From a virus: a stretch of DNA of 16,551 nt. The stretch is from the UHGV virus genome UHGV-0128496. One strand, written 5' to 3'. Positions 1,696-16,551 of this stretch are shown one piece after another. The translations under genes and the position numbers were made by a program. Under the pieces are notes generated by a model. It saw only the letters and a program-made list of their open reading frames with translations. It searched no databases and was not told where the DNA came from. Position 1 is the first letter of the stretch; each line of letters opens with the position of its first letter.

Positions 1696-2274
1696 TTAGT
1701 TGTTGCTGGTGGTTGGGATTAGTTTCTGCCAAATCGCTGAAACATATTTCGCCTGGTGGCGGGCATCAGCCAGTGCGTTATGTGCAACCCCATCAAATGG
1801 CATATCACGCTTAGGATCGAAACCTACAACTCTGCCTAATGTGACGATGGTTCTGACGTCGTGATCATTCCAAAATTGCCACGGGCAAACCTGGCCGGCA
1901 CGCTCATATGCGCCGCGCAATATAACGTTGTCGAAAGTAGCTCCATTGCCCCAAACTTTTAAATATTTAGGGTTATCAGAATGCCGATTAATGAAATGGC
2001 TCAGTTCAGATAGGGCAGATGATATCGGCATCGCATCATCAACACAGATTGCTGATCGTGCTTCTGAGCTTTGTCTTAACCACCACAGAATAGTGTCACC
2101 GTCCGGCACCGCTCCCTGCTCCATAGCGCTTTCAAGGTTAACGGCGCTGTAAAACTCCTGACCCAGTTCACCGCTTTGCGGATCGAAGAACACGGCACCT
2201 ATGGAGACGATAGGGGCATTTGGTTTTTTGCCCATGGATTCGAGGTCGATCATTAAATTGTTCACGTTATACAT
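1696..2274 (-). CDS. DEDDh-family 3'-5' exonuclease (DnaQ-like)
   Basis: Exo motifs visible: LMIDLESMG (D-x-E), WGNGATFDNVIL, GVAHNALADARHQAKY (H-x4-D). I place the start at the internal ATG at 2274 (MYNVNN...), preceded directly by AGGAGA; the longer track ORF (to 2466) would overlap the upstream gene by 200 nt. Confidence 0.75.
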   Translation of the reverse strand: MYNVNNLMIDLESMGKKPNAPIVSIGAVFFDPQSGELGQEFYSAVNLESAMEQGAVPDGDTILWWLRQSSEARSAICVDDAMPISSALSELSHFINRHSDNPKYLKVWGNGATFDNVILRGAYERAGQVCPWQFWNDHDVRTIVTLGRVVGFDPKRDMPFDGVAHNALADARHQAKYVSAIWQKLIPTTSNN

Positions 2275-3049
2275 TCTCCTGCTGCGGTGCTGCTGCCTGC
2301 TCAGCTGCCATAGCTGCATCGATTTGCTCACGTAATTTGGTCGCGTGATAATCGTCATCTTCATCCGTGATGGTCTGCGACCAGAAAATGCTATGGCTTC
2401 CGTAAACCATAGGCTCACGAACATCAACGGTTTTAGATACCAGCCAGTCCATGCGGAGTACGTCATCCGGAGTTACCGGAGAGTTGCCAGCCTGGAGAAT
2501 AGATTTCAGCGCTGCCCTTGGCATTGCCGACCAGGCAAGGAATACGTCTGGCCTGTCGACATCTTCTGTCGGGAGAGTGTTTTCTATTTCGTCCAGCGCA
2601 TCACTTAGCTTCTGAAATGCGTCGTCTGGAACAACGTGGCACTCTTCGCCATCAACATCTTGCTGACAGCTATCATCTGCGAGTTCGAATGCGGCCCAGC
2701 AAACATTGAGCAGCATTTCAATAACGCGACGGTGTTCTGCTGTTACGCAATTCTCCGGCACTACCTGCGCTGGCGTGGCAGTGTAGAGCGGAATTACCGC
2801 ATCTCCCATTGGCTGAGACAGGCACTTAAGGTGAAGATCACCCATCTTTGCATAAGCCAGAGTTTCCTCAGCGGCATAAAGCACAGGCTCAGCATTCAGG
2901 ACTTCATCAATCACCTTCACAGCATCAGCCATTGCGTAGCCGAGATTACCGCCGTCGCTTTGTGCTGCTGCGTTGCTGAGTATTTCGCTTATCTGGTGCA
3001 GGCGATCGAGTGATACAGGACCGTGCGCCGGGTGGTTGTTAGTTGTCAT
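2267..3049 (-). CDS. Hypothetical acidic phage protein (260 aa), function unknown
   Basis: Long ORF in the coupled early-left operon; AGGGAGGA RBS 7 nt upstream of the ATG at 3049. Asp/Glu-rich with cysteine clusters; no motif I can assign. Confidence 0.6.
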   Translation of the reverse strand: MTTNNHPAHGPVSLDRLHQISEILSNAAAQSDGGNLGYAMADAVKVIDEVLNAEPVLYAAEETLAYAKMGDLHLKCLSQPMGDAVIPLYTATPAQVVPENCVTAEHRRVIEMLLNVCWAAFELADDSCQQDVDGEECHVVPDDAFQKLSDALDEIENTLPTEDVDRPDVFLAWSAMPRAALKSILQAGNSPVTPDDVLRMDWLVSKTVDVREPMVYGSHSIFWSQTITDEDDDYHATKLREQIDAAMAAEQAAAPQQENV

Positions 3050-3052
3050 GGG

Positions 3053-3271
3053 TTAGTCCTCCCTGTACGGATTTAATTTGTTGTGCAGTTTGTTAAATGG
3101 CCCCCATACGATGGAGCTATACCACTCAGCTATCTTTTCTGCCTGTTCTCCTGCTAACCAGATGAGGACTATCGGTGATATTGGAATCATTAAAATAAGA
3201 AAGAGAAGGAAAAATAGAGCCTCTTTAACACGGCTTTGGCGCGGATAATTCTTCAGGAATATTTTGGTCAC
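3053..3271 (-). CDS. Small hydrophobic (membrane) protein, 72 aa
   Basis: GTG start overlapping the stop of the upstream HNH gene (GTGA). Strongly hydrophobic central segment ALFFLLFLILMIPISPIVLIWLA suggests one transmembrane helix. Confidence 0.45.
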   Translation of the reverse strand: MTKIFLKNYPRQSRVKEALFFLLFLILMIPISPIVLIWLAGEQAEKIAEWYSSIVWGPFNKLHNKLNPYRED

Positions 3272-3645
3272 AAGTTATCCCCCTCTTGATACCGCTCGAA
3301 CCAGAACACAACTGGTGCGTTAGTCTGTTTAACCAGGCCAAATGATTCCGCTGTGCGGTAACTTCTTGACGCACGGCGAGTTACATCAACCTGAGTGGCT
3401 ATGCGGCTGCGAAAGTCTTCTACTGTGCTGCACATTTTGAACAAGTTGCATGGAATGCATGCTGGAACCATGTTGCTGACCGTGTCATTTTCTGGCCTGT
3501 CCATTGCGTAGCCGTTGCTGATATTTCTTCGTACCGCTTCTACATGGTCTGCATGCCACTTATCGCCAAGTTCACAGCCGCAATAAGCACAGCGACCGCC
3601 AAACTTCATGCGCAGTTCTGCACGCTGTTTTTTCGTCAGTGCCAT
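3268..3645 (-). CDS. HNH endonuclease
   Basis: CAYCGC ... WHADHVEAV ... N ... VPACIPCN: HNH core (His-Asp-His, Asn) flanked by two CxxC zinc ligand pairs. Start lies 1 nt from the upstream gene's stop. Confidence 0.75.
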   Translation of the reverse strand: MALTKKQRAELRMKFGGRCAYCGCELGDKWHADHVEAVRRNISNGYAMDRPENDTVSNMVPACIPCNLFKMCSTVEDFRSRIATQVDVTRRASRSYRTAESFGLVKQTNAPVVFWFERYQEGDNL

Positions 3646-4455: not shown

Positions 4456-4619
4456 GGCGTTTTACCTTTACGTTCCTGTTCCAGTTGCACCAGAGACTCT
4501 TTTAATGCTGCGAACGTAGCTTCTAGTCTGGTGGCGACTTCGCGCATAAGCGGTGCATGCTTTGGTGGCAATTCAGCAACGGAGGCAAACGCCTCCGCTA
4601 CGAGTTCTTTTACCTTCAT
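4452..4619 (-). CDS. Unannotated small ORF (55 aa) coupled between the HD and wHTH genes
   Basis: Hand translation gives MKVKELVAEAFASVAELPPKHAPLMREVATRLEATFAALKESLVQLEQERKGKTP. It is below the 60-aa cutoff of the ORF track. Its ATG overlaps the HD gene stop (ATGA) and its TGA overlaps the ATG of the next gene. Confidence 0.4.
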   Translation of the reverse strand: MKVKELVAEAFASVAELPPKHAPLMREVATRLEATFAALKESLVQLEQERKGKTP

Positions 4620-5155
4620 GCGGCGCATTGGCGCTGCTCCATCAATTCGTTAAAGCGATTGATGAACATGCCGTATGACTGGCCAGGACGAACTGGATTG
4701 ATAATGAATAAATCCGTTGGGACAACTCCCTCGAGGCATGGCCACACGGAACCTTCGTCAACCTCAAAATCGCGGCGTTCGCTGGCGAGCATCACCAGAT
4801 CGGCATATTTCACAGTTGGGTGTTGTTCCGTCGGTAGGCCGAACTTCTGCCGAATGGCTGCATCCACGCGAGCTTCGATCACCTGGTAATCCGGAAGCAG
4901 GTGCTTAAGCGGGGATGGGATGTCCTGCAGGTAGGCTTCAGCAGCATCATGAAGCAGTGCTTCTAATGCAAACTCCTGCGGAACGAGGTGGCTGGTTAAA
5001 ACGCTATGCTGGCCGACGCTATAAAACTCAGGAAGATGCCCTGCAAAACGGCAGATATGAGACAACGCGGTAGCAATATCCTCGATCACGATATCGTCCT
5101 GTTGGATATCGAGGTAATTAAAATGTTTGCCGGATAATGTCTGAATGTAGCTCAT
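4616..5155 (-). CDS. HD-domain phosphohydrolase (YfbR-like 5'-deoxynucleotidase family)
   Basis: H...HD metal-binding signature (QHSVLTSHL ... LLHDAAEAY). I place the start at the ATG at 5155 (MSYIQTL...), preceded by GGAGAAAA; the track ORF begins at a GTG at 5182 with no SD. Confidence 0.7.
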   Translation of the reverse strand: MSYIQTLSGKHFNYLDIQQDDIVIEDIATALSHICRFAGHLPEFYSVGQHSVLTSHLVPQEFALEALLHDAAEAYLQDIPSPLKHLLPDYQVIEARVDAAIRQKFGLPTEQHPTVKYADLVMLASERRDFEVDEGSVWPCLEGVVPTDLFIINPVRPGQSYGMFINRFNELMEQRQCAA

Positions 5156-5262
5156 GGTTTTCTCCATATTGGCGCGCTGCACCGCGCTATTAAATTAATG
5201 AATTGCTAAATTTAGCGTGCAGCAACCCAACCCATGACATGGGTTAATTACGGTCTGGGGTA

Positions 5263-6180
5263 TTAGGCTGCGGGTTTTTGTGGCTGTTCTTCTTTGTACG
5301 AAAGAAGATCACACATCAGGTTTACTACTTTGCTGAATTGGATTAGATCCGTCCCGGCCTGATGGCGCCATTGAAATGCTTTATCATCTTCATCGTTGAA
5401 TGTTTGGGCTTGGGTATTGATGCGCGAAAAATGGAAATTTTCGGTGAGGATGAACGATACACCGCATCCTGCTAGCTCCATTTTATCAGCGGTAAAGCCG
5501 CTATTAAGGCTATCAACTAGCTCGCTTTGAATTGAGTCGTGTTCAGCTGAGTAGCGAATAACTTCATTTTGATCGGCAAGGCGGGACAGCTGGATATAAT
5601 TGCCGACGGTAAACCCTTCAAAAGCATTGGCCACGCCATTGATATAGTTTTTCAACCGCGTAGTTAAACCGTTCTTAATATCGCTAATGTTGATTGTTTC
5701 TGTTTTAACGGAACCGACAACTTTCACCAGCATAGCCACAGCCATACCGGCAATATTTTTATTGGTCGTATTGACCACTAATAGCTTTTCGTTGGTGCTG
5801 TACAACGCAAGGATCAGCGTTGATTTAACAAATGCCCGTTTACACAGGTCAACGCGGACGCTGTCGATAATTGCTAATCGTTCGATACGTTTGATTTTAC
5901 TCCCGGACATATCTTCGATTCTTTGGATCCGTGCTGCGGCTTCCTTCAAAACAACATGCTGGGGAATGATTTTCTGATCATGGCGGATCACGATGGCATA
6001 CCCACCTGATATTGGGGTGACCAATTCGCCAGTGATCGGGTTTGGCACAAAAGAGGCGCGTGAAAACTCAGTTTCACCAATCTCGGAGTAGGGGAGTTCA
6101 AGCAGATGCCCCTCGATAGCTTCAATGCTAGGTAGTGTGGCGCGGTACACGATTGCGTTACGGAACTTAGGTAATTTCAT
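5263..6180 (-). CDS. rdgC: RdgC-like recombination-associated protein
   Basis: 305-aa ORF whose length and sequence pattern (N-terminal FRNAIVYR, central hydrophobic core, C-terminal acidic tail) match my memory of E. coli RdgC (about 303 aa). AGAGGAAAG RBS 5 nt upstream of the ATG at 6180. Confidence 0.65.
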   Translation of the reverse strand: MKLPKFRNAIVYRATLPSIEAIEGHLLELPYSEIGETEFSRASFVPNPITGELVTPISGGYAIVIRHDQKIIPQHVVLKEAAARIQRIEDMSGSKIKRIERLAIIDSVRVDLCKRAFVKSTLILALYSTNEKLLVVNTTNKNIAGMAVAMLVKVVGSVKTETINISDIKNGLTTRLKNYINGVANAFEGFTVGNYIQLSRLADQNEVIRYSAEHDSIQSELVDSLNSGFTADKMELAGCGVSFILTENFHFSRINTQAQTFNDEDDKAFQWRHQAGTDLIQFSKVVNLMCDLLSYKEEQPQKPAA

Positions 6181-6513: not shown

Positions 6514-6711
6514 ATGGGCGCTTTTGATAACCAGGAAATTACGTTACCCGCATGCCCTAAGTGCGGCACTAAGACGAAGAAGAAAATCGCTTGGCTCAAG
6601 TCGAACAAAAGTTTCACTTGTCGATGTGGAGCTACTATCAATGTCAACAGCAGCCAGCTTACTTCCGAAATCAGGAAGGTTGAGGACAAGCTGAAGAAGC
6701 TCTTTAAATAG
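6514..6711 (+). CDS. Small Cys4 zinc-ribbon protein (about 65 aa), lysine-rich
   Basis: CPKCG-x15-CRCG zinc-ribbon signature. AGAGGGA RBS about 6 nt before the ATG at 6514; an intrinsic terminator follows the stop. It lies antisense to the 3' half of the minus-strand ORF 6544..6910. Confidence 0.45.
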   Translation: MGAFDNQEITLPACPKCGTKTKKKIAWLKSNKSFTCRCGATINVNSSQLTSEIRKVEDKLKKLFK

Positions 6712-7153: not shown

Positions 7154-7873
7154 TTAGCCAAACTCTATCATTTTTAGAGGTAAGCATCTGATTAGCTTGC
7201 CGAATATGTATAGTTCATTCATTTCATGCTCCTCTATGAAGAAGGGCGGGTAATGTTCATTGTCTGAAAGAACTGCCAGTCGGCGCCCTTTTACCTTCTG
7301 CAAACGTTTAACGAACGTACTGTCTTCAAAATTGAACACATAAACGCCGTCGCCGCTGAATTGTTCAACCTTGCTGTCTATGAAAAGCAGGTCCTTTGGG
7401 CAAAGCGTGGGCATCATGCTATCGCCATCAACATTTATCATGACGATGCCATCAAGGCTTCTACGACCAAACAACTCGAAGATCCTCTCTTCTGGAATCT
7501 CTATTGAGCTCACTATTGTAGGGAATGGTTGGTTTATATATCCGGAACCGGCTGAAGCATGAACATCCAATTGCTCTATTCTGACCGTGCCTTTGGCTGG
7601 CGCGTCGCCACCATTAACAGGCACACCATAATCAAGATAAGCCGGTGAGACGGCAAGTCTTTCTGCAATTCGAATCATCTTCTCATCTCTCGGCTTTGCA
7701 GTACCAAGAGTGTAGCGCCGCGCCATCTCATACGAGACACCACTGAACTCTGACAATTCTTTAACTCCAATAGATTGCTCTTGGAGAGACCTGTTTAGCC
7801 TTTCGGCAAAGTCTTTGTATTTAGCATTTTCCACCATAAGTAGAAGATTAAGCGCACAAGGCATAGTTGTCAT
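7154..7873 (-). CDS. cI: CI-like prophage repressor (N-terminal HTH, C-terminal S24 LexA-type peptidase)
   Basis: HTH segment VKELSEFSGVSYEMARRY; S24 self-cleavage signature VDGDSMMPT (Ser) and FVKRL (Lys). Coordinates are the maximal ORF. The in-frame ATG at 7837 (MVENAKYKDF...) is the more likely start: a PRM-like promoter (-35 ATGACA, complement of 7868-7873; 17-bp spacer; -10 TAATCT, complement of 7845-7850) would place the transcript start at that ATG, giving a leaderless mRNA as for lambda cI. Confidence 0.85.
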   Translation of the reverse strand: MTTMPCALNLLLMVENAKYKDFAERLNRSLQEQSIGVKELSEFSGVSYEMARRYTLGTAKPRDEKMIRIAERLAVSPAYLDYGVPVNGGDAPAKGTVRIEQLDVHASAGSGYINQPFPTIVSSIEIPEERIFELFGRRSLDGIVMINVDGDSMMPTLCPKDLLFIDSKVEQFSGDGVYVFNFEDSTFVKRLQKVKGRRLAVLSDNEHYPPFFIEEHEMNELYIFGKLIRCLPLKMIEFG

Positions 7874-7914
7874 TTCTATTTTAAGTTGCTAATAATTGCT
7901 ACTATAAGTAGTAT
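7831..7914. promoter_or_regulatory. Immunity-region operators with divergent PRM/PR promoters
   Basis: Three inverted-repeat sites of type CTACT-N3-AGTAG: perfect CTACT-ATA-AGTAG (7899-7911), degenerate CTATT-TTA-AGTTG (7876-7888) and CCACC-ATA-AGTAG (7831-7843). PR candidate: -35 TTGCTA (7886-7891), 17-bp spacer, -10 TAGTAT (7909-7914), upstream of the cro RBS AGGAGA (7933-7938). The operators overlap the -35 and -10 elements of both promoters. Confidence 0.45.
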
Positions 7915-9139: not shown

Positions 9140-9994
9140 ATGAGCACTAAATTAACCGGTTACGTATGGGATGCATGCGCTTCGTCAGGCATGAAGTTAT
9201 CCAGCGTTGCCATCATGGCGCGTCTGGCAGACTTCAGCAGTGATGAAGGGGTTAGCTGGCCTTCCATCGCTACCATCGCGCGCCAGATTGGTGCTGGTGA
9301 GAGCACGGTTCGTACAGCCATATCTCAGCTGGAAAAAGATGGTTGGTTAACCCGCCAGCAGCGCCGTAAAGGCAACCGAAATGCATCGAACGTTTACCAG
9401 CTCAATGTTGCGAAATTGCAGGCTGCTGCCTTTTCTCACCTGTCAGATTCTGACGCATCAAAATCTGATGCCTCAAAAACAGACGCGTCAAAATCTGAGG
9501 CATCAAAAAACGATGAAAAAGGCGGTTTTCACCCGTCAGAATCTGGGGGGGATCCGTCAGTAAATACAACTACTGATCCATCAGTTAAAAAACCTTCTTG
9601 TCCGGTTGCGCCGCAACCAGACCCTGAAGTGATGATCACCGATAACGCCATCCTGGTTCTGAATCATCTGAACCTGGTTAGTGGCTCACGATACCAAAAA
9701 TCAAAAACTTCTCTGGAAAACATCCGTGCTCGTCTGCGTGAAGGTTACACCGTTAGCGACTTACAGCTGGTGATCGACCTTAAGCATGAGCACTGGAACG
9801 GCAATGACGTGCAGTACCAGTACATGCGTCCTGAAACGCTCTTCGGTCCGAAAAAATTTGAAGGTTATCTGCAAAGCGGGATCCGCTGGGACAAGAAGGG
9901 GCGGCCACCGCGTGACAGCTGGGGTGAAAAGAAACATGACCCGATGAAGTTCGGTCCGGTTGATAGCAAGATTCCAGAGGGGTTCAGAGGATGA
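9140..9994 (+). CDS. Replication initiation protein (lambda-O-like; N-terminal winged HTH, conserved phage C-terminal domain)
   Basis: N-terminus VAIMARLADFSSDEGVSWPSIATIARQIGAGESTVRTAISQLEKDGWL is typical of HTH_36-type initiators. A low-complexity linker (DASKS x4) precedes a conserved C-terminal domain (VLNHLNLVSGSRYQ ... LFGPKKFEGYLQ). The position after the cro/cII module matches a replication gene. Confidence 0.7.
   Translation: MSTKLTGYVWDACASSGMKLSSVAIMARLADFSSDEGVSWPSIATIARQIGAGESTVRTAISQLEKDGWLTRQQRRKGNRNASNVYQLNVAKLQAAAFSHLSDSDASKSDASKTDASKSEASKNDEKGGFHPSESGGDPSVNTTTDPSVKKPSCPVAPQPDPEVMITDNAILVLNHLNLVSGSRYQKSKTSLENIRARLREGYTVSDLQLVIDLKHEHWNGNDVQYQYMRPETLFGPKKFEGYLQSGIRWDKKGRPPRDSWGEKKHDPMKFGPVDSKIPEGFRG
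9452..9511 (+). repeat. Four tandem 15-bp iteron-like repeats inside the initiator gene (putative origin)
   Basis: gacgcatcaaaatct / gatgcctcaaaaaca / gacgcgtcaaaatct / gaggcatcaaaaaac, with partial copies on both sides. Each has a near-palindromic GAYGCRTC core and an A-tract. Lambda ori likewise lies as iterons inside the O gene. Confidence 0.45.
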
Positions 9995-11325
9995 TGGAAA
10001 ATAAATACTGCCGTGCACTGGCTGAACTCCGTTCAAAACCAGCACACGAGTTGAAAGAGGTCGGTGATCAATGGCGCACTCCGGATCTGTTGTTTTGGGG
10101 GATCAATGCGATGTTCGGCCCTCTGGTGTTGGACCTTTTTGCCGACGACAGCAACGCGAAGTGCCCAGCATGGTACACGGCTGAAGATAATGCCCTGACG
10201 CAGGATTGGTCAGAGCGGCTGGCAGAACTCGGTGGTGCCGGGTTTGGCAACCCGCCTTACAGCCGCTCTCAGTACCACGACAAGCAGGCCGTTACCGGAA
10301 TGACCCACATCATTAACCACGCTATGGCCATGCGAGAAAAGGGTGGTCGGTACGTTTTTCTCATTAAGTCTGCGACGAGTGAAACGTGGTGGCCGGAAGA
10401 GGCAGATCACGTCACATTCATCCGTGGCCGAATTGGTTTCGATCTTCCTACATGGTTCGTGCCGAAAGACGAAAAGCAGCAGCCCACCAGCGCATTTTTT
10501 GCTGGCGCTATCGTGGTCTTCGACAAAACATGGCGGGGTGAGCGTTTCAGTTACATCAACCGCACCGACCTGGAGGCCAAAGGCCGTGCTGCGATGTCGC
10601 TGGCCCAATTTGCCGTGGGAAGAACGCAAACTGATGCGGCGCCAGAGCTGGACGCTGAGGTAGTGCCGAAGAAATCAGAGGCAGAACTGCCATTAACCCA
10701 AAAAGCCATTCTGGAAACCAGCGGTGTAGAGGCTTGGGCCTGTGTTGTCGCGGCGTTCGGCGAGAAAGACGAGTACACCTTCAGCGAGTCAAAGTTTGGT
10801 CATACCTGGGCTGCCGACTCTCTGGAAAACCCTGAATTTACCAATGTTTCACCGCTGACGATCGACAGAGCGAAAAAGCTGATCAGCGAGAGCATCCTGG
10901 TGGGTGTTAATGCATGGCTGGAAACATTGCCCTTTGATAGCGATGACGTGAAACAAGACATGTCAGAGCGGTTACGCACGGTTGCCGTTGAGTCTGCGAA
11001 AGAATACGGCATTAACCACAGTGAATTCATCGCGACCATGGAAAGCCTGGATAAAGCCAAATGGTCAAATATTCGGGGGATCCGCGCCCATGTCCGTGAG
11101 ACGCAGGAATCAAAGGACAAGGCGTTAAACGAATCGCGCGTTTGGCCTCTTGAGGTTGGACTGGTGTTTAACCAGATTGAAGGGGCTGACGCTCTACCTG
11201 TTTCGCAGCAGAACAAGCTGAAAGCCAATATCAACCAGCTGTGGCTCGAACGTATGCCGACGAGTGAAATTATCACGACCGCTGGTGGTCTCTTCAACAG
11301 CATGCAGGGGGCCGTCAATGCGTGA
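9991..11325 (+). CDS. Phage Dam-family N6-adenine DNA methyltransferase with about 240-aa C-terminal extension
   Basis: N-terminal about 200 aa carry WRTPD and the catalytic FGNPPYS (NPPY) motif of phage Dam-type N6A MTases. Its ATG overlaps the initiator stop (ATGATG). Residues about 205-444 have no motif I recognise. Confidence 0.8.
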   Translation: MMENKYCRALAELRSKPAHELKEVGDQWRTPDLLFWGINAMFGPLVLDLFADDSNAKCPAWYTAEDNALTQDWSERLAELGGAGFGNPPYSRSQYHDKQAVTGMTHIINHAMAMREKGGRYVFLIKSATSETWWPEEADHVTFIRGRIGFDLPTWFVPKDEKQQPTSAFFAGAIVVFDKTWRGERFSYINRTDLEAKGRAAMSLAQFAVGRTQTDAAPELDAEVVPKKSEAELPLTQKAILETSGVEAWACVVAAFGEKDEYTFSESKFGHTWAADSLENPEFTNVSPLTIDRAKKLISESILVGVNAWLETLPFDSDDVKQDMSERLRTVAVESAKEYGINHSEFIATMESLDKAKWSNIRGIRAHVRETQESKDKALNESRVWPLEVGLVFNQIEGADALPVSQQNKLKANINQLWLERMPTSEIITTAGGLFNSMQGAVNA

Positions 11326-13255
11326 AATTATCGTTGATAACTTTGCTGGTGGCGGCGGCGCGAGTACCGGCATTGAACTGGCGATCGGGCGTAGCGTGGA
11401 TATCGCTATCAACCACGACGAAAACGCTATTGCGATGCATAAGACGAATCACCCTGACACGCTGCATTATTGCGAGTCGGTGTTTGACGTTGACCCAAGC
11501 GCAGCCACCAGCGGTAAACCTGTCGGTCTGGCCTGGTTTAGCCCTGACTGCCGCCACTTTTCCAAGGCGAAGGGCGCTAAGCCGGTTAAGAAAGAGATTC
11601 GCGGGCTGGCGTGGATTGTCCTGCGCTGGGCGCTGGCAGTACGTCCCCGCGTCATGATGCTGGAGAACGTCGAAGAGTTTAAGACATGGGGCCCGCTGCT
11701 GGATGAAGAATTACGCCCGGATCCTGAGCGTGCTGGCGAAACATTCGAGGCATTTGTCGGCATGCTGTCGACGGGGATCGCGGCGAATCACCCTGCGCTG
11801 GCTGAGGTTTGTGAATTCCTTGCCATTGAGCCGCACGGCCAGCAGGCGCAACAGCTGATCGCCGGGCTTGGTTATGAGGTTGATTATCGGGAGCTGCGCG
11901 CATGTGACTACGGCGCGCCGACGATCAGAAAGCGTTTCTTCATGGTCATGCGCTGTGACGGCCGCAAGATTCATTGGCCTGAAGCGACTCATGGGGATCC
12001 AAAATCACTGGAAGTACAAAGCGGCAAGCTGGCGCCATGGCGTACCGCGGCGGAGTGCATTGACTGGAATATCCCGGCCCGGTCCATCTTCGACCGCAAA
12101 AAGCCGCTGGCGGAAAATACGCTCAAACGTATCGCGCGCGGCATCCAGCGCTTTGTTATCGAAAGCGCATCACCTTTCATCGTGAAGTGTAACCACACCA
12201 CGACGAAAGGAGGTTATGACTGTTTCCGCGGGCAATCGTTGTTAGAGCCATTGCAGACCATCACTAAAAAGCATGGCTACGCACTGGCGGTACCGCATCT
12301 TACTAAATTCCGCACCGGGGCCACCGGGCAGCCAGTGACCGAGCCGGTACCAACTGTCACCGCTGGTACGTCGGCGCGCCCGGGCGGGAATGGGCATGCG
12401 CTTGGCGTAGTTGAGGCCGCCCTGACACCGTTCCTGGCTGGCAATGGCGGCAGTGAGTACCAGGCAAAGCCGCGCCCGCTGGATAAACCCGCTCATACAA
12501 TCCTCAAGCAGTCCCGCGCGTGCGTGGTTGCGCCGGTCATCGCCCGCCAGTTTGGAGCCAGTGTTGGGCACAGGGCTGACGAACCGAGTGCGACGATTAC
12601 TGCAGGTGGTGGCGGTAAGTCGCAGCTGGTAACTCCAACACTGATCCAGATGGGGTACGGCGAACGCCCAGGGCAAGAACCGCGTGTTCTTCAACTGAAT
12701 AACCCGCTCGGCACGGTCACTGCTGGTGGTAATAAGTTTGCAACGGTGAGCGCGTTCCTGGCGAAGCACTATGGTGGGAATTACACGGGGCCGGGTGTTG
12801 GTATGGATGAGCCTGCCCACTCAGTCACTACTGTTGATCACCACGCGGTAGTTGCGTCGCACCTGGTGAAGCTGCGCGGAACCTGCCGCGACGGTCAGAC
12901 CATGGATACACCTATGCCGACGATTACCGCTGGTGGCCAGCACGTTGGCGAGGTCCGGACATTCCTCGAAACCTACTGCGGTGATAGCGAGGATGAATGG
13001 CTGGTGACGATCGAGGGGGTTAAGTACCAGATCGTCGATATCGGAATGCGCATGCTGCAACCGCATGAGCTTTATAAGGCGCAGGGCTTCCCTGACGGCT
13101 ACGTTATCGATCAGGACTATCGCGGCAATCGTTACGCCAAAGACAAGCAGGTAGCGCGCTGTGGTAACGCAGTACCGCCGCCGTTCGCTCGTGCGCTGGT
13201 AGAAGCAAATCTTCCTGAATTATGTGCAAATCAAAAGGCGGGTGCAGCCGCCTGA
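11318..13255 (+). CDS. DNA cytosine-5 methyltransferase (large, repeat-containing variable region)
   Basis: Motif I FAGGGGAS, an ENV motif (MLENVEEF) and C-terminal CGNAVPPP; the Cys motif reads SPDCRHFS rather than canonical PCQ. Start taken at the ATG at 11318 (MREIIVDNFAGGGG), overlapping the Dam stop; the track ORF extends upstream in the same frame. The region between the catalytic and C-terminal motifs holds about five P-x-x-T-[VI]-T-A-G-G repeats. Confidence 0.8.
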   Translation: MREIIVDNFAGGGGASTGIELAIGRSVDIAINHDENAIAMHKTNHPDTLHYCESVFDVDPSAATSGKPVGLAWFSPDCRHFSKAKGAKPVKKEIRGLAWIVLRWALAVRPRVMMLENVEEFKTWGPLLDEELRPDPERAGETFEAFVGMLSTGIAANHPALAEVCEFLAIEPHGQQAQQLIAGLGYEVDYRELRACDYGAPTIRKRFFMVMRCDGRKIHWPEATHGDPKSLEVQSGKLAPWRTAAECIDWNIPARSIFDRKKPLAENTLKRIARGIQRFVIESASPFIVKCNHTTTKGGYDCFRGQSLLEPLQTITKKHGYALAVPHLTKFRTGATGQPVTEPVPTVTAGTSARPGGNGHALGVVEAALTPFLAGNGGSEYQAKPRPLDKPAHTILKQSRACVVAPVIARQFGASVGHRADEPSATITAGGGGKSQLVTPTLIQMGYGERPGQEPRVLQLNNPLGTVTAGGNKFATVSAFLAKHYGGNYTGPGVGMDEPAHSVTTVDHHAVVASHLVKLRGTCRDGQTMDTPMPTITAGGQHVGEVRTFLETYCGDSEDEWLVTIEGVKYQIVDIGMRMLQPHELYKAQGFPDGYVIDQDYRGNRYAKDKQVARCGNAVPPPFARALVEANLPELCANQKAGAAA

Positions 13256-13269
13256 TATGGAGAAATAGC

Positions 13270-13962
13270 ATGAATCAGTTAACCGCTAAGGGTGTTGTGA
13301 CAATGTCCAGCCGTGAAATTGCCAGGCTGGTGCAGAGCAAACATGGTGATGTGAAGCGCTCAGCTGAGCGCCTTGCATCTGCTGGTATTTTAACCGCGCC
13401 GTTGGCGCACACCCCCTACACACACCCGCAAAACGGGCAAACCTACGAGGAGTATTGGTTTAACAAACGTGATTCTCTGGTGATCGTCGCCAGGCTGTCG
13501 CCAGAATTTACCGCCGCTGTTGTCGATCGCTGGCAAGAGCTGGAGAACAGCCAGGCCGTAAGTGTCCCGCAAACATTGCCGGAGGCATTACGTCTCGCCG
13601 CGGATCTGGCCGAGCAGAAAGAACAACTCAGCCAGCAGTTAGCCGCTGCCGCGCCGAAAGTTGAGTTTGTCGATCGATATTGTACTGCCAAAGGCTCAAT
13701 GTCTTTCCGCCAGGTGGCAAAGCTGTTGCAGGCCAAAGAGACCGATTTCCGCTTGTTCCTCATTGAGAGCGGCATTTTGTACCGGCTCAGTGGAGTGCTG
13801 ACACCTCGGCACCAGCACATTGCTGCCGGGCGGTTTGAAGTGAAAACTGGCACTACGAGCGAAACAAACTACGCCTTTAGCCAGGCACGTTTTACACCCA
13901 AAGGCATCGAGTGGATCGGCGGCCTGTGGACGGCACACATCGCTAAGGGGCATGCCGCGTGA
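13270..13962 (+). CDS. Rha-family regulator / antirepressor (Rha N-terminal domain plus KilA-C/ANT-like C-terminus)
   Basis: N-terminus MSSREIARLVQSKHGDVKRSAERL resembles the Rha domain; C-terminal EALRLAADLAEQKEQL ... KVEFVDRY resembles ANT/KilA-C. GGAGAAA RBS 5 nt before the ATG at 13270. Confidence 0.65.
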   Translation: MNQLTAKGVVTMSSREIARLVQSKHGDVKRSAERLASAGILTAPLAHTPYTHPQNGQTYEEYWFNKRDSLVIVARLSPEFTAAVVDRWQELENSQAVSVPQTLPEALRLAADLAEQKEQLSQQLAAAAPKVEFVDRYCTAKGSMSFRQVAKLLQAKETDFRLFLIESGILYRLSGVLTPRHQHIAAGRFEVKTGTTSETNYAFSQARFTPKGIEWIGGLWTAHIAKGHAA

Positions 13963-15020
13963 GAGGACTGTTTACAGCCGAGACTGTTCCGCGCCTTGGG
14001 CTTGTGCTGTTAAAGCCGGGTAGCGAACTGATGTCTTTGTTTCAACAGGGGCGTGTGCTGGTGGAGCCTCAGCCAAAAAGCATGGCTGGGCTTCCGTCGG
14101 GGCTCGTCCCTGATGCCCGGCAGCCGCTGGCAGAAGATAAGTCCCTCGAGGAATTCTTCACCGACGAGAGAGTTATCCGTGCAGCAGGCGGTTTGTCCGG
14201 GTTGGAATCCTGGCTAGAGCGTAACGTGAAGGAATGCCAGTACCCGCACACTAATTATCACCATCATGAGCTGGTAACGATGCGACATCCCCCTGGATCA
14301 ATGTTGCTCTGTTGGCATTGCGATAACCAGCTGCGCGAGCAAACCACCGCGGCGCTGGCAGAACTGGCCCGGCGTAATCTCATTAACTGGCTGATCAGTT
14401 CTATCCTGTCTTCGCTTGGCTACAACAACGAGCGTGAACTATCCCTCGGTGAATTGTGCTGGTGGGCCGTTTACTCAGGCATTGCTGATGCAATCACGGA
14501 AAGGATGGCCCAGCATGCGCTTCGCTTACCGGATGAGCCGTTTTTATCCGTATATCGCGAAAGTGACATTGTGCCGATGCCACCGACAAAAAACATTTTG
14601 CAGAAGAAGGTCACCCCTGCGGTCACGGCTGCGCATTTAAAGCATGGAACAAATCAGGAAGTGGCCTATGACCAGCCACAGGTTCTGGCTCTGCATGCGG
14701 ATCCTGAATCCCCTGAATCATTCATGTTGCGCCCAAAACACCGCAGGTGGGTGAATGAGGACTATACCCGGTGGGCTAAAACCCAGCCCTGTGAAGGTTG
14801 CCGGCGGCCAGCGGATGATCCACACCATGTCATTGGTCACGGCATGGGCGGTACCGCCACTAAAGCCCACGATTTGTTCGTGATCCCTCTGTGCAGAGAG
14901 TGTCACGACAAATTACATGCTGATGTTGCAGCGTTCGAGAAAAAACACGGTACCCAGCTGGAGCTGCTATTCCGATTTATGAATCGAGCGCTGGCGATCG
15001 GCGTAATAACAAAAGCGTAA
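13959..15020 (+). CDS. DUF968-like prophage protein with C-terminal HNH-like zinc motif
   Basis: GTG start overlapping the Rha stop (GTGA), with AAGGGG 8 nt upstream. C-terminus PCEGCRRPADDPHHVIGHGMGGTATKAHDLFVIPLCRECHDKLH has an HNH-like arrangement (CxxC ... HH ... CxxCH). I recall DUF968 (YdfU-like) proteins sitting next to Q in Qin-like prophages. Confidence 0.5.
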   Translation: MRGLFTAETVPRLGLVLLKPGSELMSLFQQGRVLVEPQPKSMAGLPSGLVPDARQPLAEDKSLEEFFTDERVIRAAGGLSGLESWLERNVKECQYPHTNYHHHELVTMRHPPGSMLLCWHCDNQLREQTTAALAELARRNLINWLISSILSSLGYNNERELSLGELCWWAVYSGIADAITERMAQHALRLPDEPFLSVYRESDIVPMPPTKNILQKKVTPAVTAAHLKHGTNQEVAYDQPQVLALHADPESPESFMLRPKHRRWVNEDYTRWAKTQPCEGCRRPADDPHHVIGHGMGGTATKAHDLFVIPLCRECHDKLHADVAAFEKKHGTQLELLFRFMNRALAIGVITKA

Positions 15021-15041
15021 TTGTATGGAGCGCTGAGCATA

Positions 15042-15734
15042 ATGAATTTACAAGAACTGGAATATACGCGGATTGAACTGCGCCGCGCGCTGGCGGATTT
15101 ATCAGGATCGACAAAAGGACAGCTGCAGGCGTTCAGTGAGCATCCACCAGCAGATAAGAATAAATACCCCCGGCACCATCCTGAAATCGTCATGGAGGGT
15201 GGGGAAGGTTGTGGGTCAAAGGTTGTAACAACGCTGGCCACTCCATTTTATGTTCTTGAGACAAGGAGCCGTCGTCGACCTTTGCCGCCTATTAAAGATA
15301 CGGAGTTCGCTTGTTCAGCATGGCGTCGTTCGGTCAATGGTCTGGGTGAGCATTTGCAGGCATGGGTGCGGTACTGCTATGGGTATGACCTTACTTTCCG
15401 GTACCAGACATTGATGTGCCAGCACGTGTGGGAACAGTTTCAGCGTCAGCATAGCGGCAAAAAAATACAGGGCCGCGTCACTAAAAAACTGGTAGGGCTT
15501 GTCTGGCTGGCGGCGCAAGAAGTTGCTGCCTCGCGTAATAACGATACCTATCAGGAGTATGCTGGTGCAGCTCTGGCGCGCATGGTCAGCGTTGAGCGTT
15601 CCACCTGGCTCAGAGTGTATTCAGGCCACTGGGCGGCTTTCAAAGCGTCGTTTGCTGAAATGGATAGCCAGGCACTAAGCGAAATTTTGTCACGGTACGA
15701 AGAGTACCAAGAACTGAAAGTGGCGGAAATGTGA
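15042..15734 (+). CDS. Late-gene antitermination protein Q-like
   Basis: Last gene of the early-right operon, immediately upstream of a promoter-plus-terminator pair. Size and sequence fit my recollection of enterobacterial Q-like proteins. Start placed at the ATG at 15042 (MNLQELEY...). Confidence 0.5.
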   Translation: MNLQELEYTRIELRRALADLSGSTKGQLQAFSEHPPADKNKYPRHHPEIVMEGGEGCGSKVVTTLATPFYVLETRSRRRPLPPIKDTEFACSAWRRSVNGLGEHLQAWVRYCYGYDLTFRYQTLMCQHVWEQFQRQHSGKKIQGRVTKKLVGLVWLAAQEVAASRNNDTYQEYAGAALARMVSVERSTWLRVYSGHWAAFKASFAEMDSQALSEILSRYEEYQELKVAEM

Positions 15735-15792
15735 GGTAACTTTCACTAACTCCCTCAAATGGGCTTGCAAAATGCAACAAAATGAGCCATAT

Positions 15793-15821
15793 TTGAAGCT
15801 AATTTTATATTTTGTCATAAT
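15793..15821 (+). promoter_or_regulatory. PR'-like late promoter candidate
   Basis: -35 TTGAAG (15793-15798), 17-bp spacer, -10 CATAAT (15816-15821), just upstream of a terminator. An alternative is TTGCAA (15765-15770) with CATATT (15788-15793). Confidence 0.4.
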
Positions 15822-15831
15822 TATATCTAAC

Positions 15832-15853
15832 CTCGCCTCGGCGGGGTTTTTTT
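15832..15853 (+). terminator. tR'-like rho-independent terminator
   Basis: GC-rich hairpin cctcgcc-tcg-gcgggg followed by T7 (15847-15853). Its position directly after Q and a promoter matches the lambdoid 6S-RNA/tR' arrangement. Confidence 0.6.
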
Positions 15854-15932
15854 ATGCCTTTTGTATCTAAAGCTTGATGCAAAAATGAACCAGAGTTATC
15901 TGTGTGTCACACGATAAAAAAGGGGAAAAGGC

Positions 15933-16124
15933 ATGCAAAATCAACCTTATATGACAGAAGAAGCAAAAGCGGTTTTTAACGAACTCAGCGCTTCACCAGC
16001 GACAGCTGGGGAAATTGCACAGAATACGCACCTAAGCCGAGAGAAATGCCAGCTCATCCTGACGCAGCTGGTTATGGCGGGGTTATCAGATTACCAGTTT
16101 GGATGTTACAAACGCCTCCACTGA
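15933..16124 (+). CDS. Small hypothetical protein (63 aa), possible winged-helix DNA-binding
   Basis: AAGGGGAAAAGG RBS directly upstream of the ATG at 15933. The segment ATAGEIAQNTHLSREKCQLILTQLVMAGL is HTH-like. It is the first gene after tR'. Confidence 0.4.
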   Translation: MQNQPYMTEEAKAVFNELSASPATAGEIAQNTHLSREKCQLILTQLVMAGLSDYQFGCYKRLH

Positions 16125-16274
16125 AGGGGGCATTCTGCTGTGGAAATGGGCGGCTGGTGGGTGTTGTAGCACCCAACCAGCCATTAGCTCATGCTTTCAG
16201 GTCACAAGCTAACCAAGGCCCACTGCTTTAGCGCAAAAGCATAGTGAGCCTATCAGAGTTACGCTTACGGATCT

Positions 16275-16530
16275 ATGAAAAATACTGTAAATATAAACAG
16301 TGTTGAGCTTATCAACGCTGACTGCCTGCAATACCTCGCTACCCTCCCAGATAACACCATCGACCTTATTGTTACGGATCCGCCTTATTTTAAGGTGAAG
16401 CCGAACGGCTGGGATAATCAGTGGAACGGTGACGCCGACTATCTTCGATGGCTTGATATGTGTCTTGCCCAGTTCTGGCGAGTGCTTAAGCCTGCCGGCA
16501 GCCTGTATTTGTTTTCAGGTCACCGACTTG
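16275..16530 (+). CDS. DNA methyltransferase, N6-adenine/N4-cytosine beta-class (5' fragment, truncated by contig end)
   Basis: Hand translation: MKNTVNINSVELINADCLQYLATLPDNTIDLIVTDPPYFKVKPNGWDNQWNGDADYLRWLDMCLAQFWRVLKPAGSLYLFSGHRL, with the DPPY catalytic motif near the N-terminus. No stop codon before the adapter junction at 16531. Confidence 0.7.
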
Positions 16531-16551
16531 AGATCGGAAGAGCACACGTCT
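16531..16551. other. Illumina TruSeq adapter (sequencing artifact, not biological)
   Basis: The last 21 nt, agatcggaagagcacacgtct, exactly match the start of the TruSeq adapter AGATCGGAAGAGCACACGTCTGAACTCCAGTCA. Confidence 0.9.

Follow-up and report, generated by a model that had tools for sequence, protein, structure and literature searches.

The virus genome UHGV-0128496, a 16,551-nucleotide (nt) stretch of DNA that we refer to as the window, holds the left and central portion of a lambda-like Escherichia coli prophage and encodes three DNA methyltransferases (MTases) between positions 9991 and 16530: a Dam-family N6-adenine MTase, a large C5-cytosine MTase and a beta-class N6-adenine MTase of the M.EcoGII clade. 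Their catalytic motifs are intact, none of them has a restriction partner, and two of the genes lie in the early rightward operon with the third behind the antitermination gene Q. We propose, with a probability of roughly 0.6, that they are three independent orphan MTase modules, expressed only during the lytic cycle, that pre-methylate progeny DNA against restriction.

Three methyltransferases of different classes

A sequence-only reading of the window had named three MTases of different classes in this region, and each of them matches its own family well above the curated cut-off. The Dam-family protein matches PF05869 (Dam) at E=1.9e-43 (148.5 bits against a cut-off of 28.1) and the NCBIfam equivalog TIGR01712 (phage_N6A_met) with 204.9 bits against a cut-off of 97.05, the latter over profile positions 2–164 of 165. 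Its NPPY motif, at amino acids (aa) 87–90, aligns with the NPPY of T1 Dam and of the Dam protein of phage 1720a-02. When a solved homologue of this protein was searched for, none was found.

The C5 MTase matches PF00145 at E=1.9e-20 (74 bits against a cut-off of 22). Motifs I, IV, VI, VIII, IX and X are all present and in order (FAGGGG at aa 9–14, SPDC at 75–78, ENV at 116–118, RKR at 204–206, QGFP at 589–592 and GNAVPPP at 616–622), and they are invariant across 41 homologues; SPDC is a family-wide variant of PC. In an AlphaFold model of the protein, 10-residue means of pLDDT (the predicted local distance difference test) are mostly above 85 over aa 1–250 and 580–640. The top Foldseek matches of these confident parts are 3g7u (E=5e-11), MET1/DNMT1, M.HaeIII and M.HhaI, with E values from 5e-11 to 3e-8.

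The third gene begins with an ATG at 16275, encodes DPPY at aa 35–38 and is cut by the end of the contig. For the sequence past this point our reference was L001, a complete prophage 99% identical to the window, in which the full gene (18285–19337) encodes 350 aa, matches PF01555 at E=4.2e-43 and has FMGSGS near aa 310. The L001 orthologue is 76.4% identical to M.EcoGII, 83.8% to the reconstructed ancestor Anc291 and 72.5% to SUPREM/Anc284, and it is nearer to Anc289 (85.5%) than to M.EcoGII; these identities are approximate, as M.EcoGII and the ancestors were machine-read from the supplement of the SUPREM paper. Its identity to the MTase of phage 1720a-02 is likewise 76%; this phage has been named as bearing an MTase very similar to M.EcoGII (PMC5778455). 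The nearest outgroup of the M.EcoGII clade is ~27% identical (PMC11551740). Similar to M.EcoGII, which is found in a prophage of E. coli O104:H4 C227-11, the third enzyme is encoded in a lambdoid prophage, follows the beta-class order with an N-terminal DPPY and a C-terminal FxGxG, and is of nearly the same length (350 versus 349 aa), although 24% of the residues differ. Judged by these comparisons, its membership of the M.EcoGII clade is well supported, and it is probably sequence-non-specific. M.EcoGII itself methylates adenine in any context, is unexpressed in the lysogen and is deleterious if made constitutively (PMC5778455), and every reconstructed ancestor of the clade methylates DNA (PMC11551740).

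Clade membership of the third enzyme is one of three results that go beyond the sequence-only reading. The others, taken up below, are the fusion architecture of the Dam protein and the modular repeat array that accounts for the size of the C5 enzyme.

No restriction partner and no sign of decay

All three MTases had been called orphans, and this holds: neighbouring genes on both strands match no restriction or defence model. The antirepressor (Ant), DUF968, Q and the small HNH protein of the left arm matched no PADLOC defence or restriction model, and antisense and alternative-frame open reading frames (ORFs) across 10210–16231 gave zero Pfam hits. Two neighbours were considered as restriction enzymes and rejected. 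The DUF968 gene is a common lambdoid nin-region gene with no PADLOC or restriction-model support, and the small HNH protein likewise has neither.

Because the adapter letters AGATCGGAAGAGCACACGTCT stand at its terminus, the end of the contig is an assembly artefact and no biological boundary: the real sequence ends at 16530, and bases 16531–16551 are a 21-nt Illumina TruSeq adapter. It had been suggested that a cognate restriction gene might lie just past this end, but in L001 the third MTase is directly followed by holin, lysozyme and spanin genes, and then by terminase and head genes. The further possibility that the MTases are inactive pseudogenes also fell away, because every catalytic motif is intact and does not vary among homologues, and because the same genes are found in the deposited complete genomes of phages Flotzy, Eeyore, phiNP and Kp4866-6.

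Gene order predicts lytic expression

The order of genes in the operon behind the pR-like promoter is cro-like, cII-like, replication gene, Dam, C5 MTase, Ant, DUF968 and Q. As the sequence-only reading had it, Dam and C5 are coupled in this early operon: the replication-initiator-like (O-like) gene and Dam share an ATGA overlap, and the C5 gene overlaps the Dam stop by 8 nt (ATGCGTGA). The true start of C5 is the ATG at 11318; a longer GTG ORF from 11264 was rejected as an artefact.

The placement of the third MTase after Q likewise stands. Downstream of Q, which ends at 15734, come a pR'-like promoter, a strong terminator, a 63-aa ORF, a 142-nt leader and then the third MTase. From their position, we infer that the promoter and terminator are a classical pR'/tR' pair and form a Q-dependent gate for the third MTase. 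In phage 1720a-02, a module of Q, small ORF and MTase likewise places the MTase gene after Q and before the lysis genes, with the same conserved leader. Directly upstream of the three MTase genes, no plus-strand promoter-like site was seen. This layout predicts lytic-only expression, with two MTases made early and one late. In published work, prophage MTases of the M.EcoGI/GII type were without transcripts or without activity in lysogens, and their expression was toxic (PMC5778455, PMC4659465, PMC6602927); homologues of M.EcoGII are silent in lysogens of ST131 and Shiga toxin-producing E. coli (STEC) (PMC4659465, PMC6602927).

The same trio in other phages

All three MTases also occur in Escherichia phages Flotzy, Eeyore and Phi06_2987 S, in Citrobacter phage phiNP and in Klebsiella phage Kp4866-6. 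In the Escherichia phages the identities are 98–100% for Dam, 99–100% for C5 and 86–99% for the third MTase, and in phiNP and Kp4866-6 the MTases are 69–83% identical. Flotzy, the sole record with the trio whose annotation we inspected, has the replication gene, Dam, C5 MTase and Ant in the same order. We looked for functional or methylome data on these five phages and found none; the Citrobacter rodentium prophage paper does not address methylation, nor are MTases a subject of the paper on helper-embedded satellites. The three genes behave as modules that can be separated: the ECONIH5 prophage, identical in other respects, cleanly lacks the C5 gene, and the cargo before the third MTase is variable. 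Prophages with several silent orphan MTases have been documented (PMC5778455, PMC4659465, PMC6602927). The strategy is a known one, the families and the gene order carry annotations in public genomes of phages, and the exact trio is in GenBank and RefSeq; the arrangement is real but fairly ordinary.

Proposed function and alternatives

After induction or infection, transcription from pR would yield the Dam-family enzyme and the coupled C5 MTase alongside the replication protein, and replicating phage DNA would thereby become methylated at the target sites of both. Q would enable RNA polymerase to read through the terminator, and the M.EcoGII-type MTase, as the first large late gene, would methylate adenines in most or all contexts shortly before packaging. 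Its toxic activity would be limited to the final minutes of the cycle, so that the lysogen would be spared. Packaged DNA would then arrive pre-modified in the next host and resist Type I, II and III systems with adenine-containing sites. The C5 enzyme would cover what adenine methylation cannot, namely sites made of G and C only and enzymes sensitive to 5-methylcytosine (m5C), and the Dam-family enzyme may add protection or serve replication or packaging. The price would be sensitivity to methyl-dependent Type IV nucleases (McrA, McrBC, Mrr). A review sets out just this 'Trojan horse' strategy, in which orphan MTases made only on exit modify progeny DNA in advance of restriction in the next host, for M.EcoGII and for the multi-domain C5 MTases of Bacillus phages (PMC12707154).

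Several points weigh against this proposal. Function in this particular phage is read from homology and gene position, and the promoters and terminator are putative elements assigned by consensus matches. Non-specificity is expected of the third enzyme by extrapolation over a sequence divergence of 24%. The Dam enzymes of phages T1 and HP1 are reported to target GATC, but the Dam domain in the window is 29% identical to T1 Dam, and over 100 aa only. Because that identity is just 29%, GATC specificity cannot be assumed, and we rejected T1 Dam as a basis for it. If the enzyme does target GATC, it would duplicate host Dam, and replication, packaging or timing would then be a likelier role for it than anti-restriction. 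Heavy modification with N6-methyladenine (m6A) and m5C would also expose the DNA to Type IV restriction, and the net benefit would depend on the host.

A role in replication, packaging or timing, for which P1 Dam at pac is the model, might be filled by the Dam fusion and perhaps by the C5 enzyme too, and the extra C-terminal domains would in that case hold the Dam enzyme at the replication machinery or on phage DNA. The position of the Dam gene, which overlaps a replication-initiator-like gene in the usual lambdoid helicase-loader slot, is consistent with such a role, as is the requirement of P1 packaging for Dam methylation (PMC12707154). The Dam protein also has a 245-aa extension that is missing from most family members and whose central part has a homologue in the C-terminal domain of a ParB helix-turn-helix (HTH) protein encoded in the same slot of Pantoea phage AH07. 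However, the short, single-domain form of most Dam relatives implies that the extension is unnecessary for the function of the family. The survival of the ECONIH5 prophage after loss of its C5 gene argues in the same direction, and three chemistries and specificities in one phage would be left unexplained. We judge this reading unlikely.

The sequence-only reading had offered two functions side by side, a layered anti-restriction strategy and lysogenic epigenetic conversion of the host. We infer that the former is the better supported of the two. In the latter, the repressed prophage would express one or more of the MTases, re-pattern host methylation, and so alter expression or immunise the host against incoming restriction-modification. 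Prophage MTases with host phenotypes do exist, for example in Staphylococcus aureus (PMC12435837) and in the case of M.EcoGIII (PMC6602927), and variable cargo marks the post-Q region as a moron hot-spot. M.EcoGIII, though, sits in a complete restriction-modification system, unlike the genes in the window, and none of these has a promoter-like site of its own directly before it. Because two of them lie in the lytic pR operon, the third lies behind pR'/tR' and homologues are silent in lysogens, conversion is disfavoured, and we consider it quite improbable. Less probable still is that the third enzyme acts mainly on ribosomal or messenger RNA, with the small winged-helix protein encoded upstream as its specificity subunit, and modulates translation or induction. 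M.EcoGII and its reconstructed ancestors do methylate RNA besides DNA (PMC5778455, PMC11551740), yet the activity of M.EcoGII is higher on DNA than on RNA (PMC11551740). The pairing of small ORF and MTase is conserved across genera, and an MTase of a Shiga toxin (Stx) phage binds a winged-helix protein encoded upstream in a 1:1 complex that prefers 16S rRNA (PMC10810198); this precedent, however, belongs to the MT-A70/DPPW family, not PF01555/DPPY, and lies elsewhere in the phage. We accordingly rejected this STEC 'prophage rRNA methyltransferase' as a homologue of the third MTase and keep it as an analogy only. Natural variants, moreover, retain MTase and leader while swapping the small ORF.

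If the three enzymes do pre-methylate progeny DNA, the prophage would be a compact natural example of staged, multi-chemistry self-methylation, with two early enzymes and one late, non-specific one. This would bear on how temperate coliphages cross restriction barriers and on host range in phage therapy. Because the families, the strategy and the exact genes are already public, the trio in itself adds little. Two by-products may merit attention, the modular repeat array of the C5 family and the structured leader before M.EcoGII-type genes.

A Dam-family enzyme with an inserted domain

The Dam protein is, by sequence comparison, a fusion of an MTase domain with the unusual 245-aa C-terminal extension. 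It shares high profile scores, NPPY and a replication-gene neighbourhood with other PF05869/TIGR01712 phage MTases (the 217-aa Dam of 1720a-02, ST64B Sb44 and T1 Dam), but it has 444 aa against ~200–300 aa in those proteins and falls outside the single-domain size of ~170–300 aa. Its tail, the last ~60 aa, is common to ST64B Sb44, phiNP and LLS, whose Dam proteins differ from this one in that the ~145-aa internal domain is extra here. That insert is matched by only three other phage records, all from this phage group, and by AH07, where the C-terminal domain of the ParB-HTH protein gp48 (L004:1655-2977) shows 39% identity to it. The gp48 gene lies, in the slot that the Dam fusion occupies here, upstream of an annotated archaeosine tRNA-guanine transglycosylase gene, which we ourselves read as DpdA-like. 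Proteins that modify DNA may share this insert as an accessory module. Of 402 phage records with a match to the fusion, just three match over 80% or more of its length, most relatives being short and single-domain. The fusion is an architectural variant, and its catalytic domain stays within the family.

The Dam gene is labelled 'phosphoadenosine phosphosulfate reductase' in several phage records, among them those of Flotzy (L002 6674-8008) and Eeyore and the RefSeq record of ST64B. This mislabel likely stems from PHROG 33262, which bears that label and is built on fusions of phosphoadenosine phosphosulfate reductase and Dam.

A modular array in the C5 methyltransferase

Between motifs VIII and IX, the C5 MTase has a variable region of seven tandem units, each 32–48 aa long, in which hydrophobic strands come after a P-x-x-[TS]-[IV]-[TL] core; the anchors are at aa 311, 343, 391, 423, 463, 499 and 532. 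The units are 18–32% identical among themselves and show hardly any repetition at the DNA level, so they are old duplications. Homologues more than 85% identical differ by clean single-unit changes, with unit 3 or 5 deleted or an extra unit after unit 6. Across 150 family representatives, a hidden Markov model (HMM) of the unit found 1–12 units per protein, with 5–8 the commonest, which makes seven typical. The family is very large: over 8,000 close sequences come from Enterobacteriaceae, and at E<1e-30 it comprises 2,589 clusters of 50% identity.

Each of the seven ~35-aa units might be an independent target-recognising module, by analogy with Bacillus phages, whose multispecific C5 MTases line up a number of recognition domains within a single polypeptide (PMC12707154). 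The enzyme would then be multispecific and the first such case outside those phages; we put this forward tentatively, as a proposal more doubtful than probable. Like the enzymes of Bacillus phages SPR, phi3T, rho11s and H2, this is an orphan of a temperate phage with an array of short modules between motifs VIII and IX, each with a Thr-[Ile/Val/Leu] core. The target-recognising domains of the Bacillus phages are, reportedly, ~40–50 aa long, a figure ascribed to Trautner et al. in 1996. Modules here are individually gained and lost. The two groups differ in that the host here is Gram-negative and the active-site motif is SPDC, not PPCQ.

The units could alternatively form a single composite DNA-binding domain. 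When profiles of the unit, built from 7 and from 129 sequences, were compared with the PDB, no C5 MTase chain was hit at E<=10, and similarity to known target-recognising domains was not demonstrable in this way. Residues ~292–557 have pLDDT below 50 in both of two AlphaFold models, one from a shallow and one from a diverse alignment. Attempts to sort the units into types gave little separation: single-linkage clustering merged all of them, and best-hit labels were mostly ambiguous.

If multispecificity is true, then a very large family (more than 2,500 clusters at 50% identity) evolves its specificity repertoire by gain and loss of units. Combined with a non-specific adenine MTase, such an enzyme would protect A-containing as well as G+C-only restriction sites. 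The C5 family may have stayed uncharacterised because PacBio methylomes largely miss m5C.

A small ORF and a conserved leader before the third gene

The 63-aa winged-helix ORF between Q and the third MTase, of a kind that usually precedes M.EcoGII-type MTase genes, is 75% identical to the equivalent ORF in phage 1720a-02, and its position is occupied likewise in Providencia, Hafnia, phiP27 and Stx2a phages. Two E. coli prophages (L005 and L006) have other cargo in its place. The winged-helix protein could regulate the third MTase or act as its partner.

The interval between Q and the MTase is a hot-spot for cargo (L005 6150-6320; L006 7673-8796). ECONIH5 carries a reverse-strand hypothetical gene there; in three genomes the interval holds an 'SDH family Clp fold serine proteinase' gene together with a small ORF.

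Between the small ORF and the third MTase lies a conserved leader, which is non-coding because homologues differ by 1-nt indels. We found it in 58 phage records, from Escherichia, Klebsiella, Citrobacter, Providencia, Hafnia and Morganella phages, and in at least 120 IMG/VR contigs. It is at least as conserved as the coding sequence and is kept whichever gene lies upstream. A comparison with Rfam matched no family.

In a three-helix model of the leader, 93.9% of cells pair across 62 distinct sequences, compared to 20–43% with the partners slid, a difference to be read with the facts that the structure was derived from the same sequences on which it was scored and that these are closely related. 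Six pairs show double changes; for example, pair 58–82 is UA in 31, AU in 20 and CG in 6 sequences, and pair 71–149 is AU in 25, GC in 18 and GU in 12. This covariation backs helix P2 and a long-range helix, which pairs the bases immediately 5' of the AUG ([A/G]G[G/A]UC with GAUC[U/C]); the third helix, hairpin P1, is largely invariant. RNAalifold favours a competing pairing. From the comparison of these sequences, the leader is probably a structured RNA, and it may control the translation of a toxic enzyme. It might thus account for how the M.EcoGII-type enzyme, which is both toxic and biotechnologically important, is held in check. It is the most novel side observation of the analysis.

Prophage setting

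Positions of all features are collected in Table 1. A megablast search with 9991–16530 matched 12 of 5,426 complete E. coli genomes at 96–99% identity and at least 95% coverage.

Table 1. Features of the window (strand relative to the sequence as given; aa ranges refer to the encoded protein)
Feature	Position	Strand	Evidence or remark
DEDDh 3'-5' exonuclease	1696-2466	-	early-left operon
Small HNH protein	3268-3645	-	early-left operon
YfbR-like 5'-deoxynucleotidase (phosphatase)	4616-5182	-	early-left operon
RdgC-like protein	5263-6180	-	early-left operon
LexA/CI-type repressor gene	7154-7873	-	pR-like promoter faces away from it
pR-like early promoter	7867..7896	+	TTGTCA-18-AATAAT, 10/12 consensus positions
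Replication-initiator-like (O-like) gene, HTH + Phg_2220_C	9140..9994	+	PF09524 E=4.7e-23, PF13730 E=1.9e-9
Dam-family N6-adenine MTase, 444 aa	9991..11325	+	PF05869/TIGR01712
MTase domain of Dam protein	aa 1-~205, nt 9991-10605	+	73% identical (aa 1-202) to 217-aa Dam of phage 1720a-02
Inserted domain of Dam protein, ~145 aa	aa ~225-370, nt 10663-11100	+	homology searches
Conserved C-terminal tail of Dam protein	aa 383-444, nt 11137-11322	+	matches C-terminus of phrog_111, phrog_16025
C5-cytosine MTase, 645 aa	11318..13255	+	PF00145; translationally coupled to Dam
C5 variable region, seven tandem units	aa 297-555, nt 12206..12982	+	between motifs VIII and IX
Rha/KilAC antirepressor (Ant) gene	13222..13962	+	PF03374 E=2e-24, PF09669 E=1.9e-9
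DUF968 protein, HNH-like C-terminus	13959..15020	+	PF06147 E=2.2e-70, phrog_96 E=6.9e-151
Antitermination protein Q	15042..15734	+	PF06323 E=4.6e-41; start as in RefSeq annotation of 99%-identical prophage
pR'-like late promoter	15793-15821	+	TTGAAG-17-CATAAT, extended -10 TG
Strong intrinsic terminator	stem 15829-15848 (region with promoter 15793..15856)	+	8-bp stem, 5 GC pairs, then TTTTTTT
Small winged-helix ORF, 63 aa	15933..16124	+	phrog_331 E=2.6e-29; weak DprA_WH, TrmB matches
Conserved non-coding leader, 142 nt	16133..16274	+	directly upstream of M.EcoGII-type gene
Beta-class N6-adenine MTase, M.EcoGII clade, first 85 codons	16275..16530	+	cut by contig end
Illumina adapter read-through, not genomic	16531..16551	.	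AGATCGGAAGAGCACACGTCT; megablast match ends at query position 6540 = window 16530

Integrase, excisionase and early-left genes lie on the minus strand, and the rightward operon follows the repressor on the plus strand. The early-left genes also include those for an Ead/Ea22 protein and a ClpX zinc-finger protein. Several have roles in DNA or nucleotide metabolism (the HNH, YfbR-like, RdgC-like and DEDDh exonuclease genes), and none of these is tied to the MTases. Scans of the window for tRNA genes and Rfam families found nothing, and the replication module contains no recognisable helicase or helicase-loader gene between the O-like initiator and Q. RefSeq homologues of Ant begin at the equivalent of window position 13270. 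The prophage is located beside yecE/cmoA in the one record inspected.

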